Both the position numbers and the translations under genes were made by a program. From positions 9,628-73,627 of the forward strand of contig JAYOYG010000002.1 in the NCBI GenBank assembly GCA_038153445.1: 64,000 bases of DNA. Direction: 5' to 3'. The DNA comes from Pseudomonadales bacterium. GTDB lineage: Bacteria; Pseudomonadota; Gammaproteobacteria; Pseudomonadales; Azotimanducaceae. Below are positions 28,279 to 43,486 of this stretch, in pieces. Position 1 is the first letter of the stretch; each line of letters begins with the position of its first letter. The notes beneath the pieces were generated by a model, which saw nothing but the letters and a program-made list of their open reading frames with translations, was not told the DNA's origin and made no database searches.

Positions 28279-30510
28279 CTAGGGGGCGCTGACCGCGGCG
28301 GTTTGGCGTAGGGATAGGTAATCGACCAGGATCTCGGCGCCCTCGGCGAGCAGCGCATCTCGGTCTTCTTCATCGTCCTCTTCTTCCGCTAGGTCGCTAT
28401 CGGCATCGCTTTCAAGATCCTCCACGAGGGCGCTGGCGGCCTTGATGGTGGCATCTTCCGTGCTGTCCTCGTCCTGGCTTTCGGAGTCGTCATCGTCTTC
28501 CTTTTCCAGGGCCTCTAGGCTGGCCACCACAGGAAGGCCCTTCGCTTCCCGCCGAGTGTTCTCTATGGCCAGACGCAGGGCCTCATCCTCCTCACGCTCC
28601 AGGCGCCGCTGCGCCTCGTTAAGAGAAAGGCGATTGCGGGCGCTTCGGGCTCGGGCCCGTTCCACCATGGCTTCCAGGTAGGCAAAGTCCGGGTCCGTTT
28701 CCACGCGGGTTTCGTGCCGGTCCTCGAGGAGCGCCAGCAGCGGGGCCAAGTTGGGTCCCCGGCGATAGCGGGTGGGCCGTATTACGTCCCAGGGCAGGGC
28801 GTCATCGAGCGTGCTCTCGCCAATTTCATCCCGGTCGTAGACCTCGGGGTACTCAATGTCCGGAATCACCCCCTGGTGCTGGGTACTCTGCCCCGACACC
28901 CGGTAGAACTTGGCCTGGGTCATCTTGAGCTGGCCCCGGTTTAAGGGGATGAGGGTTTGCACCGTGCCCTTGCCGAAGGTTTGCCCCCCCAGGACCAGGC
29001 CTCGCTGGTAATCCTGGATGGCGCCGGCGAAGATCTCCGAGGCGGAGGCCGACAAGCGATTCACCAACACGGCGAGGGGCCCTTCCCAGGCCACCTGCCC
29101 GTCTTCGTCATTAAAGAGATCGACCCGGCCGCTGGCGCTGCGAATTTGCACCGTGGGGCCCGCTTCAATGAAGAGCCCCGTGAGGGCGTTGGCTTCCTGA
29201 AGGGAGCCGCCGCCATTATTGCGAAGGTCGATGACAATGCCGTCCACCGGTTCGCAGGGCGCCGCGGCCTCGGCCTCCGCTGCCTCCGTGTCTTCACAGC
29301 GCAGCCCCTCAATCAGGCGCTGCACGTCCCGGGTGGTGCTCTTGTATTCCGGATCTCCCTGCTGAAGCGCTTTGAAGTCGATGTAGAAGGTGGGGATGTC
29401 GATCACCCCTATGCGGTAGGTGTCCTGGCCTCGGGGTACCTCGATGACTTCACTTTGCGCCGATTGCTCTTCGAGCTTTACGGCCTCCCGCACCAGGCTT
29501 AGGACCCGGGGCGGGGCCCCGGCTTCGCTATCCGGCGGAAGCACTTCAAGGCGCACCGTGGTGCCCGCGGGCCCTCGAATGAGATCCACGACGTCATCGA
29601 GGCGCCAGCCCACGACGTCCACAAATTCCCCGTCTTCCCCCTGGGCCACGGCGCTGATGCGATCGGACGGCTCAATCTGCTTGCTCTTCTCCGCCGGCCC
29701 CGCGGGGACCAGGCTCGCGATGGTGGTGTATTCGTCTTCTACCCGCAGTACCGCGCCAATGCCCTCGAGGGACAGGCTCATCTGGATGTTGAAGTTCTCC
29801 GAGGTGCGCGGAGAAAAGTATTGCGTATGGGGGTCGTAGCTCGCCGCCAGAGCGTTCATGTAGAGCTGGAAGGCATCCTCGGCGGTGGTCTGCCTCAACC
29901 GGTTCAGGCGGTTGCGGTAGCGTTTCTCAAGGAGGGGGCCAATCTCGTCGTCCGCCTTATCCGCGAGCTTGAGGGATAGCACGCTGGCCTTTAAGCGCCG
30001 GCGCCAAAGGTCCTCGCGCGCCTCAGCGCTGGCGAGGAAGGGCTCCTCGCTCCGATCCATGGCGAGGTATTCCTCTTTGCTGAAATCGAGGGTCTCGATG
30101 CCGCTCTCCAAGAGGCGAAGCAGGGACTCGAGCTGGGTCTCCGCGGCGGCTTGGTAGCGGTTAAAGATTTCGAAGGCGGGGGTCAGATCCCCGCGCCGGA
30201 GCGCATCGTCTAGGGTGTAGCGGTAGCGCTCGAACTGGGCGATGTCGCCCTCGAGAAAGTAGGCGCGCTGGGGGTCTAAGGCATCGAGGTAATGATCCAG
30301 CGTGTCGCTGGAAAGGGTGTCGTCGATGGCCCGACGCACGTAGTGGTGCCGCGCAAGCTGCTCAAGAACCGCAAGGGCCGTTTCGGGATGTTCGGCCTCC
30401 GGCGAAAGGGGCGTGAGGGGGCCCTCCTCGGGGCTTAGGGCCTGAGCCCCAGCCGTAAAGGACAGGGCAAGAAGGGCCGCGGTCAGCGGCCGAAGAAGCG
30501 GGTTTCGCAT
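28279..30510 (-). CDS. prc: Carboxy-terminal processing (tail-specific) protease, S41 family, with a long acidic tail
   Basis: 743 aa. Signal peptide MRNPLLRPLTAALLALSFTAGAQA. PDZ region, then S41 motifs DLRNNGGGSL, SASASEIFAGAIQDY and GKGTVQ. The C-terminal ~75 aa are Asp/Glu-rich. Confidence 0.9.
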   Translation of the reverse strand: MRNPLLRPLTAALLALSFTAGAQALSPEEGPLTPLSPEAEHPETALAVLEQLARHHYVRRAIDDTLSSDTLDHYLDALDPQRAYFLEGDIAQFERYRYTLDDALRRGDLTPAFEIFNRYQAAAETQLESLLRLLESGIETLDFSKEEYLAMDRSEEPFLASAEAREDLWRRRLKASVLSLKLADKADDEIGPLLEKRYRNRLNRLRQTTAEDAFQLYMNALAASYDPHTQYFSPRTSENFNIQMSLSLEGIGAVLRVEDEYTTIASLVPAGPAEKSKQIEPSDRISAVAQGEDGEFVDVVGWRLDDVVDLIRGPAGTTVRLEVLPPDSEAGAPPRVLSLVREAVKLEEQSAQSEVIEVPRGQDTYRIGVIDIPTFYIDFKALQQGDPEYKSTTRDVQRLIEGLRCEDTEAAEAEAAAPCEPVDGIVIDLRNNGGGSLQEANALTGLFIEAGPTVQIRSASGRVDLFNDEDGQVAWEGPLAVLVNRLSASASEIFAGAIQDYQRGLVLGGQTFGKGTVQTLIPLNRGQLKMTQAKFYRVSGQSTQHQGVIPDIEYPEVYDRDEIGESTLDDALPWDVIRPTRYRRGPNLAPLLALLEDRHETRVETDPDFAYLEAMVERARARSARNRLSLNEAQRRLEREEDEALRLAIENTRREAKGLPVVASLEALEKEDDDDSESQDEDSTEDATIKAASALVEDLESDADSDLAEEEDDEEDRDALLAEGAEILVDYLSLRQTAAVSAP

Positions 30511-34339: not shown

Positions 34340-35497
34340 CTAGGGGCGTTCAGCTTCGAAGGTTTGCAGGATGGCCGGGAGCAGATCGGCCCCGAGGGCC
34401 TGGCTCCGAGCCGGGGACCAGCCTTCCTCGGGATCGGGGTGATTGCGATCATCCTTGAAGGGCATTTCCAGGGTAAAGGCTGGGCAGTGAAAGCGGTGCG
34501 CTACGGCGGCCGTGGCCATGGTGAGATTCGCGCGCCCCGGGGGCGCCACGGGATAGCCGTAGCGCTGCTGATAGGCCGGATTCAAGGCTTCTAGATGATC
34601 GCGGAAGCGCTGCTGCCGGGCGGCCCAGCGCGCTCCTGCGTCGCCGTCCCCGAAGCCCGGCACGCCCTCGCAGCCTGCGGTGAAGACATAGGGCAGGGCT
34701 TCATCGCCGTGAAGATCGAGAAACAGCGCAACCCCGCTGTTTGCCATGGCTTGCCATACCCCGGCGACCTCCGGGGCGGAAAGCCCCACCGGATCCTGCC
34801 AGGCGCGGTTCAAGTTGGTGCCCGCGGCGTTGGTGCGCAGATAGCCCCGGGCGGCCCCATCGGGGTTCATGTTGGGGACGATGTGGAACTCAAAGCTTTC
34901 CCGCAGGCGCTGGCTGCTGTCCCGGGTGGGATCGAGCAGGGCGCGGATCAGCCCCTCACTGGCCCAGCTCGCCATGGTTTCTCCCGGGTGCTGGCGAGCA
35001 ATTACCCAAATCGGCGTGCCCCCGGGTTTGCCGATGCGCAGCCCCTCCACCGGGCGCCCTTCGCAAGAGACGGCCCAACAATGGCGCGCCGCGCCCTGGG
35101 CGCTGGCCCAGGCCAAGAGGTTGTCGATAGCGGGTTGGTCGTGGGGGACGAAGTAGGCGCAGTCCACCCAGCCGCCCTCTAGGGGGGCTTCCCAGCTGAG
35201 GACCCCCTCGGCGTAGGTGGTGGGGTGCCGATGCCACCCCTTCCCGCCGTGGCGAAGCACCACCGCATAGTCGTCCCAGCCCCGGGGGTAGGCCGCGTCC
35301 CCGGCATTCACCAGGCGGACCTTTACGCGCTGCCCCGCCGTGCCCCAGAGGCGAAAGTAAAACCATTGGAGGAAGGGCTTGTCCTCGCCGCCGGCGTCCG
35401 GGGTAATTTCCACCTCTGCGGTGGCGGCCTCGGGGTGCCAGGCCCGAAGGCAGCCATTGCCGCCGGGAAAGGCGCTGCTGAAATGGAGTTCAGCCAT
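34340..35497 (-). CDS. M14 family zinc carboxypeptidase (cytosolic carboxypeptidase-like, with N-terminal beta-domain)
   Basis: Listed ORF is 34340..35542, trimmed to the ATG at 35495-35497 (MAELHFSS). Zinc-ligand contexts are ARQHPGETMASW (HxxE) and FLDLHGDE. No signal peptide. Confidence 0.8.
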   Translation of the reverse strand: MAELHFSSAFPGGNGCLRAWHPEAATAEVEITPDAGGEDKPFLQWFYFRLWGTAGQRVKVRLVNAGDAAYPRGWDDYAVVLRHGGKGWHRHPTTYAEGVLSWEAPLEGGWVDCAYFVPHDQPAIDNLLAWASAQGAARHCWAVSCEGRPVEGLRIGKPGGTPIWVIARQHPGETMASWASEGLIRALLDPTRDSSQRLRESFEFHIVPNMNPDGAARGYLRTNAAGTNLNRAWQDPVGLSAPEVAGVWQAMANSGVALFLDLHGDEALPYVFTAGCEGVPGFGDGDAGARWAARQQRFRDHLEALNPAYQQRYGYPVAPPGRANLTMATAAVAHRFHCPAFTLEMPFKDDRNHPDPEEGWSPARSQALGADLLPAILQTFEAERP

Positions 35498-36410
35498 CGG
35501 TGTCGTCCTTTTGAAGGCCCCCAAGGGCCGGCAGCAGCGCATCGATGAGCTTGCCGAGGGTGGGCGCGAGGAGGGCTAGATTGGCATCTAGCGCGGCCGC
35601 CGCGTCCTCTGCGGGGGTGTCGTCGTTGGCTTCGGGAAGGCGGAGCCTTTTGATCACCCCTTCCTCGTCGAGCACGAAACTCACCGCGGCATCATCGGTT
35701 AGCTGATAGTGCAGCTCCAGGGCGGTGACGCGAAGGCCCCGCTCGAGGGTGGCGTGCACCTCCGCTTCATCGAGGTCCTGGCCTCGGAAGCGAACCTTAT
35801 TCGCCCGGTCCAAGGGATGTTCGAGATCGGCCCATTGCCCAAGAGAAAAGCCCGCGGGCAGGGGATCCCCCATGAGCCAGCGGGTGAGCACGCCGTCTAA
35901 GGGGTTTTCGAAGCGCAGGGGGGCGATGGGCAGGCTGCCCAGGGCCCCTCGGAGGCTCTCCAGCACAGCTTCAGCCTTTGCGGCCACGCTGCCCTCCGTC
36001 GCGAGGAGGCCCCGGTCCCGATCGATGAGCACCCAGGTGCGGCGGGACCGAACCAGAGCCTGGGAGAGGAGTTCGCTGGTGAGCGTTTCGATCAGTTCCC
36101 GCCGCGCCATGCCCTTCACAGGAATGCCCGTTTTCGCCTCTTGCGCTGCCGCGCGCTCGGGGTAGCACTCCATGATGGCGGCCTTCGGCAGGATCCGCTC
36201 CTGGGTACGCAGGCGACAGAGCTGGAAGGGGCCTTGGCCGAGCACGTGGGCGCCATCCTCCTCCTCGAGCAGGGGCGCCCAGCCGCTTCGTTCCGTCTGC
36301 CCCGGGCCACAGGGGGTGAAGGGTTGAGACGCGAGGGCTTGGTCGAATTCCTCATCGGAGAGGGTCCAGGGGGCGCGGAGCTGCCATAGGCGAAGAGCGC
36401 GAAACCACAT
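35490..36410 (-). CDS. rdgC: Recombination-associated protein RdgC
   Basis: Listed ORF is 35490..36461, trimmed to the ATG at 36408-36410. The N-terminus MWFRALRLWQL parallels E. coli RdgC, and length is ~306 aa. Confidence 0.85.
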   Translation of the reverse strand: MWFRALRLWQLRAPWTLSDEEFDQALASQPFTPCGPGQTERSGWAPLLEEEDGAHVLGQGPFQLCRLRTQERILPKAAIMECYPERAAAQEAKTGIPVKGMARRELIETLTSELLSQALVRSRRTWVLIDRDRGLLATEGSVAAKAEAVLESLRGALGSLPIAPLRFENPLDGVLTRWLMGDPLPAGFSLGQWADLEHPLDRANKVRFRGQDLDEAEVHATLERGLRVTALELHYQLTDDAAVSFVLDEEGVIKRLRLPEANDDTPAEDAAAALDANLALLAPTLGKLIDALLPALGGLQKDDTDG

Positions 36411-36541
36411 AGGGGGGTCCTTGTGCCGGAGGCCGGGAAGTATGAAGGACTCCGAGCCCAAGCTCTATGATTTGCCATGGCGATGAGGTGCGCGCCTTCG
36501 CTGAGCGGTCTACACTGACTCCGGGCACAGGGGGAATCTCT

Positions 36542-39500
36542 ATGACGCGCCGCCACGTTCACGCCGCATTGGGGCTGTTGCTTCTGGCACTGCTGGGGGG
36601 GTGCGCGGCGCCGGGCCCGTCGCCTGAGGCCCTTACGGAGCTCACCTTCGCCCTCGAGGATTCGGAGCAGAGCGGGGAGGCCCGCCTCGCCGAACTGCTC
36701 CTCCGCTATCCCGATCACCTTCCCCTGCTTGATTTAGCGTTGGCCCATAGCGAAGCCCAGGGTGATCAAGAAGGACGTTTGCGCTACGCCCGCGCCGCCT
36801 TTTCCGCCGCCCTCGGGGCGGGACTCGCCCCGGACGCGCTTGAGGCGCGGGAGCGGGCGCTTCTCGACGCCCTCCGTGCGCCGCCGGCCCCCGCGCCGGC
36901 CTCGCCCCGTGAGGGTGCAAGCGCTGACGATCAGGCCTTCCTTGATGAGCTGGCGTTTCTTCAGCTGGAAGCCCAGGCCCTCTTCGATGACGGCGCCGCG
37001 GAAGACGCCTTCGGAACGTTGGAGCTGGCTCTGGCGCTTGCCGATGACGTCCTCGGCCCAAGCAGCGAAGACAGTCAGCGTTTGAGTGTATCCCTTGGCG
37101 ATCTCGCCCTTTTTCTCGGAGATCCGCGGCGCGCCGAAGGACTTTATGGCGCGGTGTTGGAGGGGGCATCGCCTGCGCTGGCGCAGACCGCGCGAAGCCG
37201 GCTTGCGGAGCTGTACGAACAGGAAGGGCGCATGGCCGCGGCTGCTGCCGTAACCCAACAGGCCCTTGGTGCCACGAAAAATCCTCTTGAGCGCGCAGGC
37301 CTTGCGGAAGACCTAGGGCGGCAGCTCGATCAGGCCGGACAGCTCTCCGCGGGCCTAAGTGCCGTGCAGGGGGCGTGCGATGCCCTGGCGGAAGCGGGTC
37401 ACCCTCTCCTGGCTCCGGTCCTTCAGTGCCGCCAAAGCCGAATCACCATGCTCGCCCGAGGCGGGCGTTCCGATGAGGCGCTCGCGGCCCTGGAGGTCCT
37501 CCAGGCTCAGCGTGCGCAGCGCTTTGGTGGGGAAGCCCCTGAGACACTTCGCGGCGAGCTGGACCGGGCTAACCTCGAGCGGGCGCTAGGGCAGAGGGAT
37601 GCCGCGGCTGCGCGCCTCGCGGCCCTGGCCTCGGCGCCGGGTTTCGGCGACGGGGCGCTGGGTGCGGAGCTTAGGGAGGCGCAGGCCCGGCTCGCCTTCG
37701 ATGCGGGGGCGGATCGGCAGGCGCTCGAGGCGGCCCAGGAAAGCCTGCGCCTTCGCGAGGCGCTTTTCGCAGATGATCATCCTCTGCTCTTGGAAACGAA
37801 GAACCTCCTAGCGGCCATCACGCTGCGCCTCGGGGATCGGCCATCGGCGGAGGGCGCCTGGCGGGAGGTGCTCGCGGGCTTTGAACGGCGCTACGGCGAG
37901 GAAAGCCTCGCGACCCTGACGGTGATGAGCAACCTGGGCATGCTTCTGGAGCAGGTAGGGCTCTTCGATGAGGCCGAGCCGCTCCTCAGAGATGCCCTCG
38001 CCGCAGCGCGCACCGTGCTGGGCCCCACCCATCCCCAAACCCTGACCATCATGAATAACCTCGCCCTGCTCCTCGAAAGCCAGGGCACCTTTGATCAGGC
38101 CGAGGCGCTCTATCTCGAGCCGCTGGAAACGCTGCGGGCGCTGGGCCAGGGGGAGCGACCGGAAGCGCTCGCCATGGAAAATAACCTGGCCTACCTCTAT
38201 TTACTGCAGGGGGCTGGAGCCGAGGCTCAGCAGCGCTTCGCCGAGCTTTTCGATCGCTTTGCCGGAACGCTCGGGCCGACCCACCCCGATACGCTCCGGG
38301 CGTTGAATAATCGGGGGCGGGCGGAAGCGCTCCTCGGCGATCTGGGGGCCGCGCGGCAGAGCTTGCTATCCGCGCTGGCGGGGCGAGAGGCACGCTATGG
38401 GCCCCTGCATCGGGATGTCATTCGCTCCCAAATCGACCTTGGCTCCCTAGAGCAGCAGGAGGGGGCCCTTGCGGCTGCGGAGGCCCGGCTTCGGGAGGCT
38501 CTCAGCCGGGCAGAGCGTGGGCTTGGAGAAGCCCATCCCTATACCTTTGATGCGCTCAATGCGCTGGCGGCGGTGCTGCGCCAGCGGGGTAAGAAGGACG
38601 CGGCCTTCCGTCTTCAGCGCACGGGCTTTGAGCGGCGCACGGCGTTCTTCCAGCGCGTGCTACCGGTGACCGGGGAAAACGCCCGGGAGGGCTATCTTCG
38701 TCTCCATCGTCCAGAGCTCGATGCGTTTCTGGCGCTCATTCCCGATCACCCCGATGAAGCGGAGGCGGGGCGAGCCCTCCTTCAGGTCAGCCTGGCGCGG
38801 AAGGGGCTGCTTCTGGCCATTGCCTCGGATATCGCCCAAATCGCCGCCCTGGGCCTCAACCCCGAACTATCGGCGCTCACCGAATCCCTCGCGGACGCCC
38901 GAGAAACGCTGGCCCAGCTCACCCTGGGCGGCCCCGGGGAGGGCGATCCCCTTGCGCATCTCGCGCAGCTTCGCGCGGAGGAGGGGCGCATCGAGGATCT
39001 GCAGCGGGCCCTCGGGCGGGCAAGCCTCCGCTACCAGCAAACTATTGAGGCGCCGACCATTGATGAGCTTGCCGCCCAGCTGCCTGCCGAGGGTGCGGCC
39101 CTCGTGGACTTCCTCGCCTATCGGGACGATGAGGGGACGCGTAGGCTCCTGGCCGCGGTGCTGCAGCGTGACCCGGAGGGGGGCATGGTGGTGCAACCGG
39201 TCACCTTCGCGCCCTTGGACAAGATTGAAGAGGGCATTCGCTATTACCGGGAGCTGATCCAGGACGAGGGCGTGGGCGATGACGAGCTCCTGGAGGAGGG
39301 CATGTTCCTCTACGAGGACGTTTGGGCGCCGGTGGCGGAGTACTTGGATCCGGACCTGCCCGTGTACCTCGTTCCCGATGGACTCTTAAACATTTTGCCC
39401 TTCGACGCGCTGGTGGATGAGGACGAGCGTTACCTTCTCGAAACCCTCGATTTGCGCATTTTGTCTTCCGCTCGCGACTTGCTGCCAAACCGCCTTCCCG

Positions 39501-40390
39501 CCGCGGCAGCGCCGCCCCTGGTGATGGCCGGGCCCGACTACGACACCGACGCCGTGGCGGACCCGGAGCAGCTGGCCCAGGCTCGAAGCCGAGCGGCGGT
39601 GCGCCCCGCGTCCGCGGCACGCGGCGCGAAGGCGGAAGAGGCCTTGCCAGCTTCTCGCGCCGCTGTGGTGCTCGAATCACTCCGGGCCGCTTCCGATGGC
39701 CTTCGGGGGCTCAGCTTCAGCCCCTTGCCCGGGGCCCGGCTTGAGGGAGAGCTGATCGTGCGGCGCCTCGGCGAAGAGTCCACGACCGCGCCGGAAATTC
39801 TGACGGCCCTGGACGCACAGGAAGCCGTGCTGGGTCAGTTGACGGCCCCTCCCACCATTCTCCACCTCGCGACCCACGGCTTTTTTCTGGCACCGGAGGA
39901 AAAGCTTCGCAAGCGCCTGATGAAGGCTCAGCGCTCTGCGGAGATGATCATTCCTCCCCCCGGGGATAACCCCTTGCTGCGCGCGGGCCTCGCCTTCGCG
40001 GGTATTAACGAGAATGCCCCCTTCTTCGGTCAGCTCGATACGCGAAATGACGGCGTGCTTACGGCCATGGAGGTGCTCGACCTGGATCTCACGGGGACCC
40101 AGCTGGCCGTGCTTTCGGCCTGCGAAACGGGACTCGGGGAGATTCATGAAGGGGAGGGCGTTTACGGTCTTCGCCGGGCCTTTCAGGAGGCCGGGGTGCG
40201 GGAGGTGGTCACGTCCCTCTGGGAAGTGAGCGATGCGGGCACGCAGGCGCTCATGACCGCGATGTATGCCCGCCTCGCCGAGGGCATGGCGCCCCGGGAA
40301 GCGTTGCGGGAAGCGCAGCGGGAACTGGCGGCTTCCCCGCGCTGGGGCTACCCCTACGTGTGGGCAGCCTTCATGATGGTCAGTCGATAA
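36542..40390 (+). CDS. Lipoprotein-type TPR-repeat protein with C-terminal CHAT (caspase-like) peptidase domain
   Basis: Listed ORF is 36467..40390, trimmed to the ATG at 36542. Signal peptide/lipobox MTRRHVHAALGLLLLALLGGCAAP. Multiple kinesin-light-chain-type TPRs follow (recurring ..LGPTHPDTL.., ..NNLA.LL..G...EAE.L). CHAT domain has FSPLPGARLE, the catalytic His in ILHLATHGFF (codon 39875-39877) and the catalytic Cys in AVLSACETG (codon 40121-40123). Confidence 0.85.
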   Translation: MTRRHVHAALGLLLLALLGGCAAPGPSPEALTELTFALEDSEQSGEARLAELLLRYPDHLPLLDLALAHSEAQGDQEGRLRYARAAFSAALGAGLAPDALEARERALLDALRAPPAPAPASPREGASADDQAFLDELAFLQLEAQALFDDGAAEDAFGTLELALALADDVLGPSSEDSQRLSVSLGDLALFLGDPRRAEGLYGAVLEGASPALAQTARSRLAELYEQEGRMAAAAAVTQQALGATKNPLERAGLAEDLGRQLDQAGQLSAGLSAVQGACDALAEAGHPLLAPVLQCRQSRITMLARGGRSDEALAALEVLQAQRAQRFGGEAPETLRGELDRANLERALGQRDAAAARLAALASAPGFGDGALGAELREAQARLAFDAGADRQALEAAQESLRLREALFADDHPLLLETKNLLAAITLRLGDRPSAEGAWREVLAGFERRYGEESLATLTVMSNLGMLLEQVGLFDEAEPLLRDALAAARTVLGPTHPQTLTIMNNLALLLESQGTFDQAEALYLEPLETLRALGQGERPEALAMENNLAYLYLLQGAGAEAQQRFAELFDRFAGTLGPTHPDTLRALNNRGRAEALLGDLGAARQSLLSALAGREARYGPLHRDVIRSQIDLGSLEQQEGALAAAEARLREALSRAERGLGEAHPYTFDALNALAAVLRQRGKKDAAFRLQRTGFERRTAFFQRVLPVTGENAREGYLRLHRPELDAFLALIPDHPDEAEAGRALLQVSLARKGLLLAIASDIAQIAALGLNPELSALTESLADARETLAQLTLGGPGEGDPLAHLAQLRAEEGRIEDLQRALGRASLRYQQTIEAPTIDELAAQLPAEGAALVDFLAYRDDEGTRRLLAAVLQRDPEGGMVVQPVTFAPLDKIEEGIRYYRELIQDEGVGDDELLEEGMFLYEDVWAPVAEYLDPDLPVYLVPDGLLNILPFDALVDEDERYLLETLDLRILSSARDLLPNRLPAAAAPPLVMAGPDYDTDAVADPEQLAQARSRAAVRPASAARGAKAEEALPASRAAVVLESLRAASDGLRGLSFSPLPGARLEGELIVRRLGEESTTAPEILTALDAQEAVLGQLTAPPTILHLATHGFFLAPEEKLRKRLMKAQRSAEMIIPPPGDNPLLRAGLAFAGINENAPFFGQLDTRNDGVLTAMEVLDLDLTGTQLAVLSACETGLGEIHEGEGVYGLRRAFQEAGVREVVTSLWEVSDAGTQALMTAMYARLAEGMAPREALREAQRELAASPRWGYPYVWAAFMMVSR

Positions 40391-40435
40391 CGCGCTAAAC
40401 TCGAGCCAAGCTAACGGCTTTAAGGAGTGGAACGG

Positions 40436-41386
40436 ATGAAACAGATTCAGCGCATGGCCTTCGCCCTCGTGCTCGGCCTCCTGGCGCCGCTCGCGGCGCT
40501 GGCTGCAGGCCCGGTGGCAAAGCTGAGCCAGCTAGAGGGTACGGTGGAATTCAGCCGGGATGGGGCGGCTTGGGAGGTGCTCTCCCGGAACAAATACCTC
40601 TTCCCCGGGCACGAGGTGCGCACCGGCGCCGACGGCTCGGCGAAGCTGTCGAGCCAGGCCTCGGGGGAAATCCGCGATCTCGGCGCCTCCACCCATTTGC
40701 GAGTCCTCGATGCGGGCATTGAGGTGCTTGCCGGCTCCGGGCTCGGGGCTTCGGGAGACGCGGCGGGGGGTTTCTGGCAAGGGGTTGAGAATAAGTTTGC
40801 GACTTCCCAGCGCTACACCACGGTGCGTCGCTCCGTGAAGAAAGCCGAGGATCTCCCGAAGATCGATACGGCACGAAACCTCGTGCTGACCGCCGAGCAC
40901 CCGGAAGTGGTGTGGTCCAACGCCGGGCCGGAGTTTAGCTACGTGCTTCGCGTCGGCAGCGAACGCTACACCGTTGCACCGGCTTCCACCGCGGAAATGA
41001 TTCGCTTTGCCGTGCCGGCGCAGCCCGCGGGAGAGTATGAGTACGAGATGCTGATCTATTTAGACGGGGAAGAGGTCTACGCCCCGCGCCGGCCGGGTAC
41101 GTTGACCTGGCTCGGGGGCCCCGAGGCGGAGGCACTTCACGCGGCGGTGCAGGCTCGGAAAGCCGATCCCGACCAGAACGACGTCTTTGCCCTCGCCGAA
41201 GTTTACGAGCAGGCGGGGCTGCTGGTGCCGGTCATGGACCTCTATCGGGACTTCTTCCAGGCCTATCCCGCGGAAAACGAGATGCGTCCGCTGCTGATTA
41301 AGGCCTATCACGACCTGAAGCTCATGGATCTGAAGGAAAAGGAAGCCATCACCTTCAATACCATCGAGATGGAACGCCAGCTCTAG
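40436..41386 (+). CDS. Secreted FecR-domain protein
   Basis: Start placed at the ATG at 40436, 8 nt after AAGGAG; the listed ORF begins at a GTG at 40427. Signal peptide MKQIQRMAFALVLGLLAPLAALAA. FecR-like beta-rich segment LEGTVEFSRDGAAWEVLSRNKYLFPGHEVRTGADGSAKL. The C-terminal half is helical. Confidence 0.7.
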   Translation: MKQIQRMAFALVLGLLAPLAALAAGPVAKLSQLEGTVEFSRDGAAWEVLSRNKYLFPGHEVRTGADGSAKLSSQASGEIRDLGASTHLRVLDAGIEVLAGSGLGASGDAAGGFWQGVENKFATSQRYTTVRRSVKKAEDLPKIDTARNLVLTAEHPEVVWSNAGPEFSYVLRVGSERYTVAPASTAEMIRFAVPAQPAGEYEYEMLIYLDGEEVYAPRRPGTLTWLGGPEAEALHAAVQARKADPDQNDVFALAEVYEQAGLLVPVMDLYRDFFQAYPAENEMRPLLIKAYHDLKLMDLKEKEAITFNTIEMERQL

Positions 41387-41419
41387 CCGCTGGCGTTGTA
41401 AGCGACCGGGGAGGGCCGC

Positions 41420-43486
41420 ATGGCGAATTTCAAAGGCCGCTGGGATTTTCTCCTGGCGGCGATCCTCTTTTTCCTTGCCCTGGTGGCCCAGCGCGCGGAT
41501 CTCTTCGCGGCTCTAGAACTACAAACCCAATCCTTCCGGCAGATTCTCCGCATGGCCGATGCGGAGCGCGTGTTCCCGGAAGATAAGATCGTCTTCGTTA
41601 ATCAGGATGAAGCTTTCTTCGAAGATTACGGTAGCTGGCCCCTCCGCCGCCTTGACCTAGCTCGGGTGGCGGAAAACGTGGAGGCCCTCGGGGGCCGGGT
41701 CATGGCTGTCGATAATCTGTTCGATTTTCCCTCCTCCTACGGGGAGGACGGTCCCACGGCGGAGAAGTTTGAGGGGGTGCCGGGCCTGCTCCTCGTATCC
41801 CAGGGGGTGGTTGAAGACGGGCGACTCATCTACATCAAACAGCCCGTGGAGCCCATTAACGGCGTTGCCCGCACCGGCTATACAAACGTGGAGTCCCGCA
41901 GTGGCTTGAGTGAGGTCATTAGTGATCTGCGCCTCTTCCCCGAGGCCATCCCCATGGAGAATGGCTGGCCCTTCGCTGTGCAGGCCGTGGGGCTCTACCT
42001 CGGAGAAACGCCCAGCTACGATCGGGAGGCGCGGGTGCTGAGCTTCGGTGATCAGCTCTCCGTGCAGCTGGATCAAAACCATCGTCTCGCTATCGATTTC
42101 CCCTCCTTTCCCGCGGGGGCACAGGGCTACGTCGCGGACTTCGGCATTCCCGTGCTGGAAATGCTGCGCCTCGAGGAGCTTGAAGAGGACGAGGCCTGGG
42201 AGCTGCGCTTCTGGGTGGAAGACAAGATCGTGATCCTCGGCGATACCTCGGAAGTCTCCCACGACTACTTTGAAACGCCCGTGGGGCGGCTTTATGGGGT
42301 CGAGCTGATTGGCGCGACCATCGCCACGCTCCTCGCCGGCGGGCCCCTCCTGCCCGCGAGCTTCGCTATGGAGGCGGCGGTGGCCCTAGGGTTGCTTTTG
42401 GCCCTGGTGGGTACGGGGCTTCTGCAGAATCCAGCCGGGCGCCTGGCAGCGTCCCTCGCTGCCCTTGGCCTTTGGGCAGCGCTCGCCACCGTGCTCTATG
42501 TGGATCGGGGCATCATGCTGTCCATGGCCTATGCAGGGGTCGCGGCAATATTGAGCATTGTGCTCATGAACATCCGCTTCTACCTCGTGGAGCGGGGGCA
42601 GAAGACCCTCATCCGTGATGCCTTTGGCCAGTATCTGTCGCCGAAGGTGGTGAACATTCTCGTGAAGGATCCCTCGCGCCTCTCCCTGGGCGGGGAGCAG
42701 CGGGAGATGACCGCCTTCTTTTCCGACGTGGCGGGCTTCTCGAGCATCTCCGAGCAGCTCACGCCAGCGGGGCTCGTGGCCTTGCTCAACGAATACCTCA
42801 CGGCCATGTGCGACATCATCGCCGAGCATGAGGGTACGGTGGATAAGTTCGAAGGGGACGCCATTATCGCCTTCTGGGGCGCGCCGCTCGATCAGCCCGA
42901 TCACGCCCTGAAGGCCTGCCTCGCGGCCATCGACATGCAGCGCTACATGGTGGATTACCGGAAGCGCCTGGAGGCGGAGGGGCGGCCCCTCCTGAAGGTG
43001 CGCATGGGGCTCAACTCCGGGCAGATCCTCGTGGGCAACATGGGATCGGCGCAGCGTATGGACTACACCATCATGGGGGACGCGGTGAACCTGGCGGCGC
43101 GCCTCGAAGGGGTCAACAAGTTCTACGGCAGCGCGACCCTCATTTCCCAGCATACGCAGCGCCTTGTGGGCGATGCCCTGGAAGTGCGCGAGGTCGATGT
43201 GGTCCGGGTGGTGGGGAAAAATGAACCGGTTACCCTCTTTGAGCCCTTGGCCCGAGCGGGGGAACTGCGCCCCGAGGAAGCCGCCCTCCGGGAGGCCTTC
43301 ACCGAGGCCCGCAGCCACTACCAGCGCCGGGATTTTCCCGCGGCCGTCGCCGCCTTCGAGGCCGTGCTGGTGAAGTTTCCTGGGGACGGACCCTCGGAGA
43401 CCCTGCTCGCACGGAGTAAACTCTACGCCGAAGCGCCACCGCCGGCGGACTGGGATGGGGTATTCCAGCTCACGGAGAAGGGCTAG
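41420..43486 (+). CDS. CHASE2 sensor domain-containing class III adenylate cyclase
   Basis: 688 aa. Layout is N-terminal TM, a ~300-aa extracytoplasmic region with CHASE2-like features, three TM segments, then the cyclase domain. Both metal Asp residues are present (FFSDVAGF, FEGDAIIA), as are the substrate Lys/Asp (VDKFEGD, RMDYTIMGD) and the transition-state Asn/Arg (VNLAARLE). The Lys/Asp pair favours ATP as substrate. Confidence 0.85.
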   Translation: MANFKGRWDFLLAAILFFLALVAQRADLFAALELQTQSFRQILRMADAERVFPEDKIVFVNQDEAFFEDYGSWPLRRLDLARVAENVEALGGRVMAVDNLFDFPSSYGEDGPTAEKFEGVPGLLLVSQGVVEDGRLIYIKQPVEPINGVARTGYTNVESRSGLSEVISDLRLFPEAIPMENGWPFAVQAVGLYLGETPSYDREARVLSFGDQLSVQLDQNHRLAIDFPSFPAGAQGYVADFGIPVLEMLRLEELEEDEAWELRFWVEDKIVILGDTSEVSHDYFETPVGRLYGVELIGATIATLLAGGPLLPASFAMEAAVALGLLLALVGTGLLQNPAGRLAASLAALGLWAALATVLYVDRGIMLSMAYAGVAAILSIVLMNIRFYLVERGQKTLIRDAFGQYLSPKVVNILVKDPSRLSLGGEQREMTAFFSDVAGFSSISEQLTPAGLVALLNEYLTAMCDIIAEHEGTVDKFEGDAIIAFWGAPLDQPDHALKACLAAIDMQRYMVDYRKRLEAEGRPLLKVRMGLNSGQILVGNMGSAQRMDYTIMGDAVNLAARLEGVNKFYGSATLISQHTQRLVGDALEVREVDVVRVVGKNEPVTLFEPLARAGELRPEEAALREAFTEARSHYQRRDFPAAVAAFEAVLVKFPGDGPSETLLARSKLYAEAPPPADWDGVFQLTEKG

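Follow-up and report, generated by a model that had tools for sequence, protein, structure and literature searches.

The closest described relatives of the locus considered here are the mtx gene clusters of magnetotactic bacteria. MtxA is said to have been defined in 2007 as magnetotactic-specific, its gene being followed by that of a CHASE2 adenylate cyclase (PMC4439547). In Magnetofaba and in Magnetococcus marinus MC-1 the cluster comprises the gene for a Sel1-domain protein, mtxA and a cyclase gene (PMC5088516), and the magnetotactic literature lists these genes, the last for an adenylate/guanylate cyclase, as the mtx cluster and not as a protease system (PMC5088516, PMC4439547). Here we analyse a 64,000-nucleotide stretch of a marine Pseudomonadales genome bin (from contig JAYOYG010000002.1; below, the window), in which three open reading frames on the forward strand (36467-43486) make up a trio of the mtx type. 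Gene A (36542..40390) encodes a predicted exported TPR-CHAT lipoprotein of 1282 residues, assigned by Pfam and by the N-termini of its orthologues. Gene B (40436..41386) encodes a predicted secreted MtxA orthologue of 316 residues, assigned by Pfam, by PDB entry 4Z29 and by AlphaFold2 with Foldseek. Gene C (41420..43486) encodes a CHASE2 class IIIb adenylate cyclase of 688 residues, assigned by Pfam CHASE2 and Guanylate_cyc matches. The trio is no new assemblage, as the magnetotactic literature had already listed the gene set (PMC5088516, PMC4439547). The gene families are those of the published cluster, and thus the window trio is a new member, in marine Pseudomonadales, of a known gene set.

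The order of the genes in the Mmc1_3696 region of M. marinus MC-1, TPR/Sel1-CHAT, MtxA and CHASE2 cyclase, is identical to that in the window, and the same three families occur in the other named members, Magnetospirillum gryphiswaldense (mtxA MGR_0208) and Magnetofaba australis IT-1. The CHAT domain of the window is 56% identical to that of MC-1, and A is orthologous to the large Sel1/TPR neighbours in MC-1 and Phaeospirillum. There are two differences: the cluster was first tied to magnetotactic bacteria, whereas the host here is a marine Pseudomonadales bin with no known magnetosome connection, and the protease is predicted to be a lipoprotein in the window but a soluble secreted protein in the magnetotactic bacteria. 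What might such a trio do? The three genes probably form one envelope-to-cyclic AMP (cAMP) signalling unit. Specifically, the locus would be an mtx-type envelope signalling module in which MtxA pairs with the CHASE2 receptor in the periplasm and both together are the target of the protease, a reading whose prospects we judge to be about even.

The assignment of a protease to the first gene follows from a CHAT match at 1.6e-70 (238 bits against a cut-off of 24), accompanied by a TPR_12 match at 2.9e-44. The TPR array takes up about residues 165-800 (37034..38941; TPR_12, TPR_10, TPR_16 and TPR_MalT matches) and the CHAT caspase-fold protease domain (PF12770) residues 923-1280 (39308..40381). 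The intact His/Cys dyad that had been reported from first inspection is borne out. The predicted catalytic His1112 (CAC, 39875..39877) lies in LHLATHGFF and the predicted catalytic Cys1194 (TGC, 40121..40123) in LSACETG, and both residues, with their ATHG and SACE contexts, are invariant in 27 of 27 orthologues. Across three bacterial classes the domain keeps 56-70% identity, with 130 invariant columns, and is better conserved than MtxA (37-56%). A phmmer search of the PDB with this CHAT domain gave no match at E<=0.01. When proteins were searched through a word index with the CHAT domain as query, the matches listed were all shorter than 660 residues and did not include even the window's near-identical full-length protein, so that long orthologues seem under-sampled there.

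A begins with a signal peptide (36542..36604; hydrophobic segment 5-27) that ends in the previously reported lipobox, LLGG-C, the Cys being residue 21 (codon 36602-36604) and followed by Ala-Ala. Because the lipobox Cys is followed by Ala, A is predicted to be anchored to the outer membrane. Signal peptides are found on all orthologues of A, of the lipoprotein type in gammaproteobacteria only; the alphaproteobacterial and Magnetococcales orthologues have an ordinary signal peptide and no lipobox. Export of A and B, judged from hydropathy, from lipobox and AXA motifs (the signal peptide of B ends in ALA) and from the signal peptides of all orthologues, is a well-conserved prediction. Might A have no catalytic part to play and serve only to hold MtxA and CHASE2 at the outer membrane, as a scaffold or sensor? 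A TPR array as long as about 900 residues would suit this role, as would the gammaproteobacterial lipoprotein anchor, but that anchor is not kept beyond gammaproteobacteria, and the invariance across classes of the dyad and of 130 other CHAT columns is a pattern typical of an active enzyme. We consider a purely structural role very unlikely.

The identity of the second gene is clear. Pfam finds in B all three MtxA domains, DUF7354 (renamed MtxA_N), MtxA_IG-like and MtxA_C, at 6e-20, 1.6e-19 and 2e-23, and this full domain set makes B an orthologue of the MtxA of the mtx clusters. B aligns over its full length with MtxA of M. gryphiswaldense MSR-1 (PDB 4Z29; E 7e-63) and contains the MRPLLI motif. 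In the AlphaFold2 model of B, with a predicted local distance difference test score (pLDDT) of 90 and a predicted TM-score of 0.86, the top Foldseek match is again 4Z29, with a target-normalised TM-score of 0.90 and a root-mean-square deviation of 1.9 for the C-terminal half. The MtxA_N domain, a predicted beta-sandwich, is encoded at 40505..40738, and the Ig-like and TPR-like C-terminal domains, placed by Pfam and by Foldseek against 4Z29, at 40865..41359.

Is MtxA_N a FecR domain? The preliminary description had called B a FecR-like protein of about 315 residues with a Sec signal. A predicted secreted protein of 316 residues it is, with a remote likeness to FecR, but it is MtxA, and the possibility that it is a FecR protein in the sense of Pfam is ruled out: PF04773 misses B, with no match to its N-domain even at E<=10, and misses 89 MtxA family members at E<=1. 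An hhalign comparison with Escherichia coli FecR gave a probability of only 0.5%. A moderate model of the isolated N-domain (pLDDT 74) matched neither FecR nor PupR structures in Foldseek; its top hit, a weak one (E 7e-3, target-normalised TM-score 0.72), was 5IX9, a "cell surface anchoring domain". We take 5IX9 to be the anchoring domain of an RTX adhesin, of the kind released by LapG-type proteases. When the N-domain was run by phmmer, exhaustively, against 1.84 billion representatives, it reached only 103 clusters, nearly all of them MtxA proteins of about 315 residues. One match (E 1.5e-4), however, is the protein P0333, a true FecR-family member (PF04773 at 3e-11, plus STN), and hhalign aligns P0333 to the MtxA profile over 58 columns at 47% identity (probability 88%, E 3e-6). 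Because the Pfam, E. coli FecR and fold comparisons fail, yet the link through P0333 exists, we call MtxA_N remotely FecR-like by sequence and not a member of the FecR family.

The third gene product matches CHASE2 at 2.7e-22 (80 bits against a cut-off of 26.3) and Guanylate_cyc at 2.6e-20. To our knowledge CHASE2, a common bacterial sensor domain, has neither a known ligand nor a known mechanism. Hydropathy places the CHASE2 region (41471..42403), a predicted periplasmic sensor, between a first transmembrane segment (10-32) and a group of three (309-391) that precedes the cyclase, and the catalytic domain (42701..43234, from Pfam and motif alignment) is therefore predicted to be cytoplasmic. 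The nearest solved structures to this domain are Cya2 and Pseudomonas aeruginosa CyaB, and the motif RMDYTIMGDAVN of C aligns without gaps to RMDYTIIGREVN of CyaB (PDB 3R5G). All six canonical residues are intact, as had been claimed (D436, K476, D480, T550, N557 and R561), but the Lys/Asp pair that had been read from them is wrong, because its place in the motif makes Thr550 the second substrate residue, whereas Asp548 lies two residues upstream. The resulting pair, K476/T550, is the class IIIb pattern, and ATP specificity is expected. By its domain and hydropathy profile, then, C is an inner-membrane receptor, with a periplasmic CHASE2 domain before a cytoplasmic class IIIb adenylate cyclase. 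Of the domains expected in the trio, profile hidden Markov models thus find CHAT, TPR_12, CHASE2 and Guanylate_cyc, and FecR alone fails. The C-terminus of C (43235-43486), about 80 residues with no Pfam match, looks helical and TPR-like by eye.

How constant is the company that MtxA keeps? One genome per species was taken, which gave 153 species with MtxA, and 80 loci were viewed with 10-kb flanks (numbered L here, with positions in each locus). A same-strand CHASE2 cyclase gene directly follows MtxA in 70 of the 73 loci with room to judge, and the pair spans Pseudomonadales, Magnetococcales and Rhodospirillales. In a Magnetococcales bin (L069, 11562-14456) CHAT and MtxA are followed by a gene for a dCache chemoreceptor, not a cyclase. 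Most of the 153 genome matches are marine Pseudomonadales bins, labelled by taxon only, and restriction to magnetotactic bacteria appears obsolete as a criterion for an mtx cluster. The marine Pseudomonadales groups with MtxA are not known to be magnetotactic. One might think from the name MtxA that the cluster serves magnetotaxis. It was first noted as magnetotactic-specific and near the magnetosome island, as a later paper relates (Richter 2007, via PMC4439547), but the predominance of marine Pseudomonadales bins and the normal magnetotaxis of an mtxA deletion mutant (PMC4439547) leave this explanation next to no probability.

The linkage of the protease gene is looser, and the order of the genes varies. 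CHAT lies directly upstream of MtxA in the clade of the window (L001-L006), in L007-L013 and in several Magnetococcales, MC-1 included; it lies directly downstream of the cyclase gene in Magnetospirillum, Phaeospirillum and other Rhodospirillaceae. CHAT therefore stays adjacent, on one strand and with short gaps, although its place differs: two gene orders occur among three classes (gammaproteobacteria, alphaproteobacteria and Magnetococcales). Among full-flank MtxA-cyclase loci, 14 of 46 have a CHAT gene. A second scan, of 80 metagenome loci centred on CHAT and with an alignment of CHAT across classes, bears on the protease family itself. In the neighbour-joining tree of CHAT domains the MtxA-linked genes fall in their own clades, one of them that of the window and another alphaproteobacterial plus Magnetococcales, and two other large clades are wholly unlinked to MtxA. 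The linked form is therefore a distinct subfamily, and the window protease belongs to a consistently MtxA-associated subfamily of a wider family of exported TPR-CHAT proteins. The conserved linkage of three families that had been proposed earlier thus stands for the MtxA-cyclase pair and, in three classes, for the adjacency of CHAT, but not for a fixed order or for a CHAT gene at every locus.

Independent evidence that the two kinds of protein act together comes from a fusion. In the protein P0329 (674 residues; L169, 115-2139) a signal peptide precedes a Peptidase_C14 domain (6e-38), which contains AGHG and DACR motifs, and an entire MtxA, whose alignment with B covers 284 residues at 29% identity (E 2e-32); the same fusion is present in a second, independent assembly (P0342, MBU3917495.1). 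A caspase-fold protease and MtxA are therefore found in one secreted polypeptide. The partial gene after that of P0329 looks like one for a family-3 solute-binding protein, not CHASE2. From gene linkage we infer, with good support, that MtxA is a dedicated periplasmic partner, as co-sensor or regulator, of the CHASE2 ectodomain, and that the linked TPR-CHAT protein belongs to that pathway too, as a third member whose presence varies among lineages.

How might the protease work on the pair? In the scheme that we propose, the TPR array of A would bind either MtxA or a cue in the form of a protein or peptide, and binding would activate or position the CHAT protease. The protease would then cut MtxA in the exposed linker after the invariant QRYTTVRR, or would cut the CHASE2 ectodomain. 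The cut would relieve a CHASE2-mediated inhibition of the cyclase and cAMP would rise, the output being a one-way proteolytic switch and not a reversible ligand binding. Two observations in Sinorhizobium meliloti count as precedents: CyaD1 that lacks its CHASE2 domain makes cAMP constitutively (PMC5498481), and CHASE2 cyclases respond to a peptidic signal by way of the outer-membrane protein NsrA (PMC7529298, PMC13001267). That the exported CHAT protein is a dedicated input to the CHASE2 pathway, whose cut in the MtxA linker or in CHASE2 irreversibly turns on cAMP synthesis, is possible, and we put it forward tentatively, thinking it rather more likely to be wrong than right.

The candidate site deserves a closer look. 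The linker between the domains of B begins with QRYTTVRRS (40808..40834), in which, among 89 family members, Q, R, Y, T, V, R and R are invariant and the second T is at least 90% conserved. The linker is exposed, and the pLDDT of the AlphaFold2 model falls there to 72-84. This agrees with the behaviour of MSR-1 MtxA, from which trypsin removed residues 1-141 during crystallisation, the linker being accessible to trypsin (PMC4439547). The linker after QRYTTVRR (40808-40834) is the best candidate for a cleavage site.

Nearly all Pseudomonadales MtxA proteins from loci that lack an adjacent CHAT gene (L014-L078) have a pair of cysteines, one in the linker (xxCD[NS]KVRTI) and one at the start of the Ig-like domain (RNACPE), which probably form a disulfide that staples the linker. 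Both cysteines are absent from all 40 of the 40 MtxA proteins of CHAT-linked loci, and the window MtxA, compared over the linker at 40835-40900, has no Cys anywhere in the protein. The pattern could reflect shared ancestry alone, or it could be related to access of the protease.

Several observations weigh against a protease that acts on the MtxA-CHASE2 pair. No CHAT gene is found within 10 kb in 32 of the 46 full-flank MtxA-cyclase loci, and the pair therefore does not need a protease gene beside it. In the CHAT-centred scan, MtxA or cyclase is adjacent in only 16 of the 80 loci; among the 49 whose flanks are long enough to judge, just 9 have either gene near, although in the tree the unlinked genes fall in clades apart from the linked ones. 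The motif QRYTTVRR is equally invariant where CHAT is not adjacent, so that on this evidence alone it is not a CHAT-specific site; it may be a CHASE2-binding or structural element rather than a site of cleavage. Finally, an M. gryphiswaldense mutant that lacks mtxA showed no phenotype in standard conditions (PMC4439547). The many pairs without adjacent CHAT and the many CHAT genes without adjacent MtxA speak against a strictly obligatory trio.

Is the protease, then, just a neighbour? MtxA and the CHASE2 cyclase might be the whole unit, and the TPR-CHAT protein might have an unrelated periplasmic role, for example in general envelope proteolysis. The CHAT gene is indeed missing beside most MtxA-cyclase loci, and the two large clades of close CHAT relatives adjoin other genes, for OEP (TolC-like), Hsp70-like, ABC-F, asparaginase or SecA proteins. 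It would be hard, however, to reconcile a chance neighbour with an adjacency that recurs in three classes in changed order, on one strand and with short gaps, with linked CHAT genes that form their own clades, and with the caspase-MtxA fusion, and we regard this explanation as improbable. The unlinked exported TPR-CHAT clades (L087-L163, L164, L166) recur beside OEP/TolC-like and Hsp70-like genes, with an ECF sigma factor gene in L166, and may represent a different set of protease and partners.

A somewhat stronger contender, though still an unlikely one, is that the protease makes or destroys the signal by cutting an external or envelope protein or peptide, with MtxA as a co-receptor that presents the product to CHASE2. 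The binding of peptides and proteins is typical of TPR arrays, and most MtxA-cyclase pairs function with no protease gene beside them. In S. meliloti the cue that CHASE2 cyclases sense by way of an envelope partner is peptidic, namely ribosomal protein uL2 (PMC7529298), and MtxA offers Ig-like and TPR-like surfaces for protein binding (PMC4439547). On the other side, the caspase-MtxA fusion fits action on or with MtxA better than the processing of a free signal, although it leaves room for the latter, and no conserved gene for a candidate substrate lies beside the cluster, the neighbours being housekeeping genes in conserved order. The reading in which the protease acts on the MtxA-CHASE2 pair itself remains the one that we prefer.

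It is worth noting what stands beside MtxA when CHAT does not. In 22 of the 32 CHAT-less loci, MtxA is immediately preceded by genes for a Ser/Thr kinase with a CHASE2 domain, for a PP2C phosphatase and for an FHA protein, and L007-L013 have all six genes: kinase, PP2C, FHA, CHAT, MtxA and cyclase. None of the kinase, PP2C and FHA genes occurs within the 64-kb window. The CHASE2 domains of the kinases (L013, 1561-5510; L014, 5719-9850) match that of the window cyclase at 1e-80 to 1e-90, about as closely as do those of the local cyclases, and one MtxA may therefore serve two CHASE2 receptors. A doubled arrangement is found in L167 (1-10438), which has MtxA, an unassigned 714-residue protein, TPR-CHAT (called as two genes), a second MtxA and a CHASE2 cyclase.

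The layout of the window trio is compact. From the ends of the reading frames we confirm three same-strand genes with the gaps given in the preliminary description: 45 nucleotides from the stop of A (40390) to the ATG of B (40436), which is preceded by the Shine-Dalgarno sequence AAGGAG, and 33 from the stop of B (41386) to the start of C (41420). An alternative GTG for B, at 40427, would leave 36 nucleotides after A. The longest reading frame of A starts at 36467, but the N-termini of orthologues favour ATG 36542 (MTRRHVHAALGLLLLALLGGC..., 1282 residues); position 36411, from which the region had been taken to begin, is intergenic and out of frame. A promoter and terminator scan of the trio found no site above chance between the three genes. 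Upstream on the reverse strand are genes for a Prc-like tail-specific protease (28279-30510; TSP_NTD, PDZ and S41 domains), an M14 carboxypeptidase (34340-35542) and RdgC (35490-36461), which are not kept with the module beyond Pseudomonadales gene order. The 3' neighbours, BolA, rhodanese, SDR and FtsX, do not belong to the module; throughout Pseudomonadales they keep their order.

Such surroundings bear on a further explanation, that the locus is an anti-phage defence, either a Pycsar-like cyclic-nucleotide system or a Craspase-like CRISPR TPR-CHAT system. The cyclase domain does match PADLOC PycC models, at up to 4e-31, and TPR-CHAT proteases are known from type III-E CRISPR. The PycC matches, however, are generic homology among class III cyclases, and neither A nor B has a PADLOC match. 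No cyclic-nucleotide-binding effector gene adjoins the trio, whose neighbours are BolA, rhodanese and SDR, and there are no cas genes nearby in the window. The protease is predicted to be exported, its CHAT domain found no PDB match by phmmer at the threshold given above, and the locus sits in Pseudomonadales-conserved order, not in a variable island. The chance of a defence system is negligible in our estimation; from the PADLOC results, the gene order and the magnetotaxis of the deletion mutant (PMC4439547), the defence and magnetotaxis explanations are both effectively excluded.

Why does the assignment matter? MtxA has had a crystal structure without an assigned function, and a name that wrongly ties it to magnetotaxis. 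It proves to be a near-constant partner of a CHASE2 cyclase, in relatives also standing beside a CHASE2 Ser/Thr kinase, and the pair is accompanied by a separate subfamily of caspase-like proteases that are predicted to be exported. Gating of the cyclase by the protease, if it occurs, would amount to a new logic of signalling: CHASE2 would gain its first mechanism and MtxA its first function, and a caspase-like protease of the periplasm would for the first time have a part in the control of a second messenger. Even without such gating, the pairing of MtxA with CHASE2 is enough to reassign a family that bears the wrong name.

Several other described systems invite comparison. TPR and CHAT are also combined in Craspase, in which the TPR-CHAT protein Csx29 cleaves Csx30; this cleavage is regulated, occurs at a specific site and switches the response downstream. 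Craspase, however, is cytoplasmic, RNA-guided and cas-linked, whereas A is predicted to be exported and has no gRAMP/Cas7-11, Csx30 or cas genes nearby, nor a detectable sequence match to solved CHAT structures. In the LapG/LapD system the action of a periplasmic cysteine protease is tied, through the inner membrane, to cyclic-nucleotide signalling. The direction there is reversed, internal cyclic di-GMP controlling the external protease, and LapG is transglutaminase-like, not caspase-fold like the CHAT domain of A; the likeness that runs through MtxA_N and 5IX9 is weak (E 7e-3).

The FecR-CHASE2 systems of Burkholderia and Pseudomonas share with the window a secreted protein whose gene immediately precedes that of a CHASE2 receptor, and MtxA_N is remotely FecR-similar. 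B differs in that it fails Pfam FecR and adds Ig-like and TPR-like domains, and no protease is described in those systems. In S. meliloti, SMc02177 presumably lies beside cyaD1. It is a FecR-domain target gene of Clr beside smc02178 (PMC5498481), and both at P. aeruginosa PA4035 and in the "BiofilmReg" operon of Burkholderia the gene for a CHASE2 histidine kinase comes right after that for a secreted beta-rich LysM-FecR protein (PMC5192318). S. meliloti also has the CHASE2 cyclases CyaK, CyaD1 and CyaD2, for which an envelope partner, NsrA, is required for activation by a peptidic cue (PMC7529298, PMC13001267) and in which the CHASE2 domain is inhibitory (PMC5498481). NsrA is an outer-membrane beta-barrel, not a protease or an MtxA, and no MtxA is reported there. 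Its gene reportedly adjoins cyaK. SMb20495, a large TPR target of Clr in S. meliloti, was considered as a CHAT orthologue, but tblastn against plasmids gave no close orthologue, the best match having 37% identity; no S. meliloti replicon was among the best 30 of the 145 matching records.

With the mtx cluster itself the window shares all three gene families, and the comparison turns on what is added. In the searchable literature, whose coverage excludes Richter 2007, a CHAT or caspase domain in the first mtx gene finds no mention, and no paper was found that links CHASE2 with CHAT. Beyond that literature go the assignment of the first mtx gene to a predicted exported CHAT protease, the wide spread of the cluster in marine Pseudomonadales genome bins, the succession of MtxA and CHASE2 cyclase in 70 of 73 loci, the separate clades of MtxA-linked CHAT genes, upstream or downstream according to class, and the secreted caspase (C14)-MtxA fusion.

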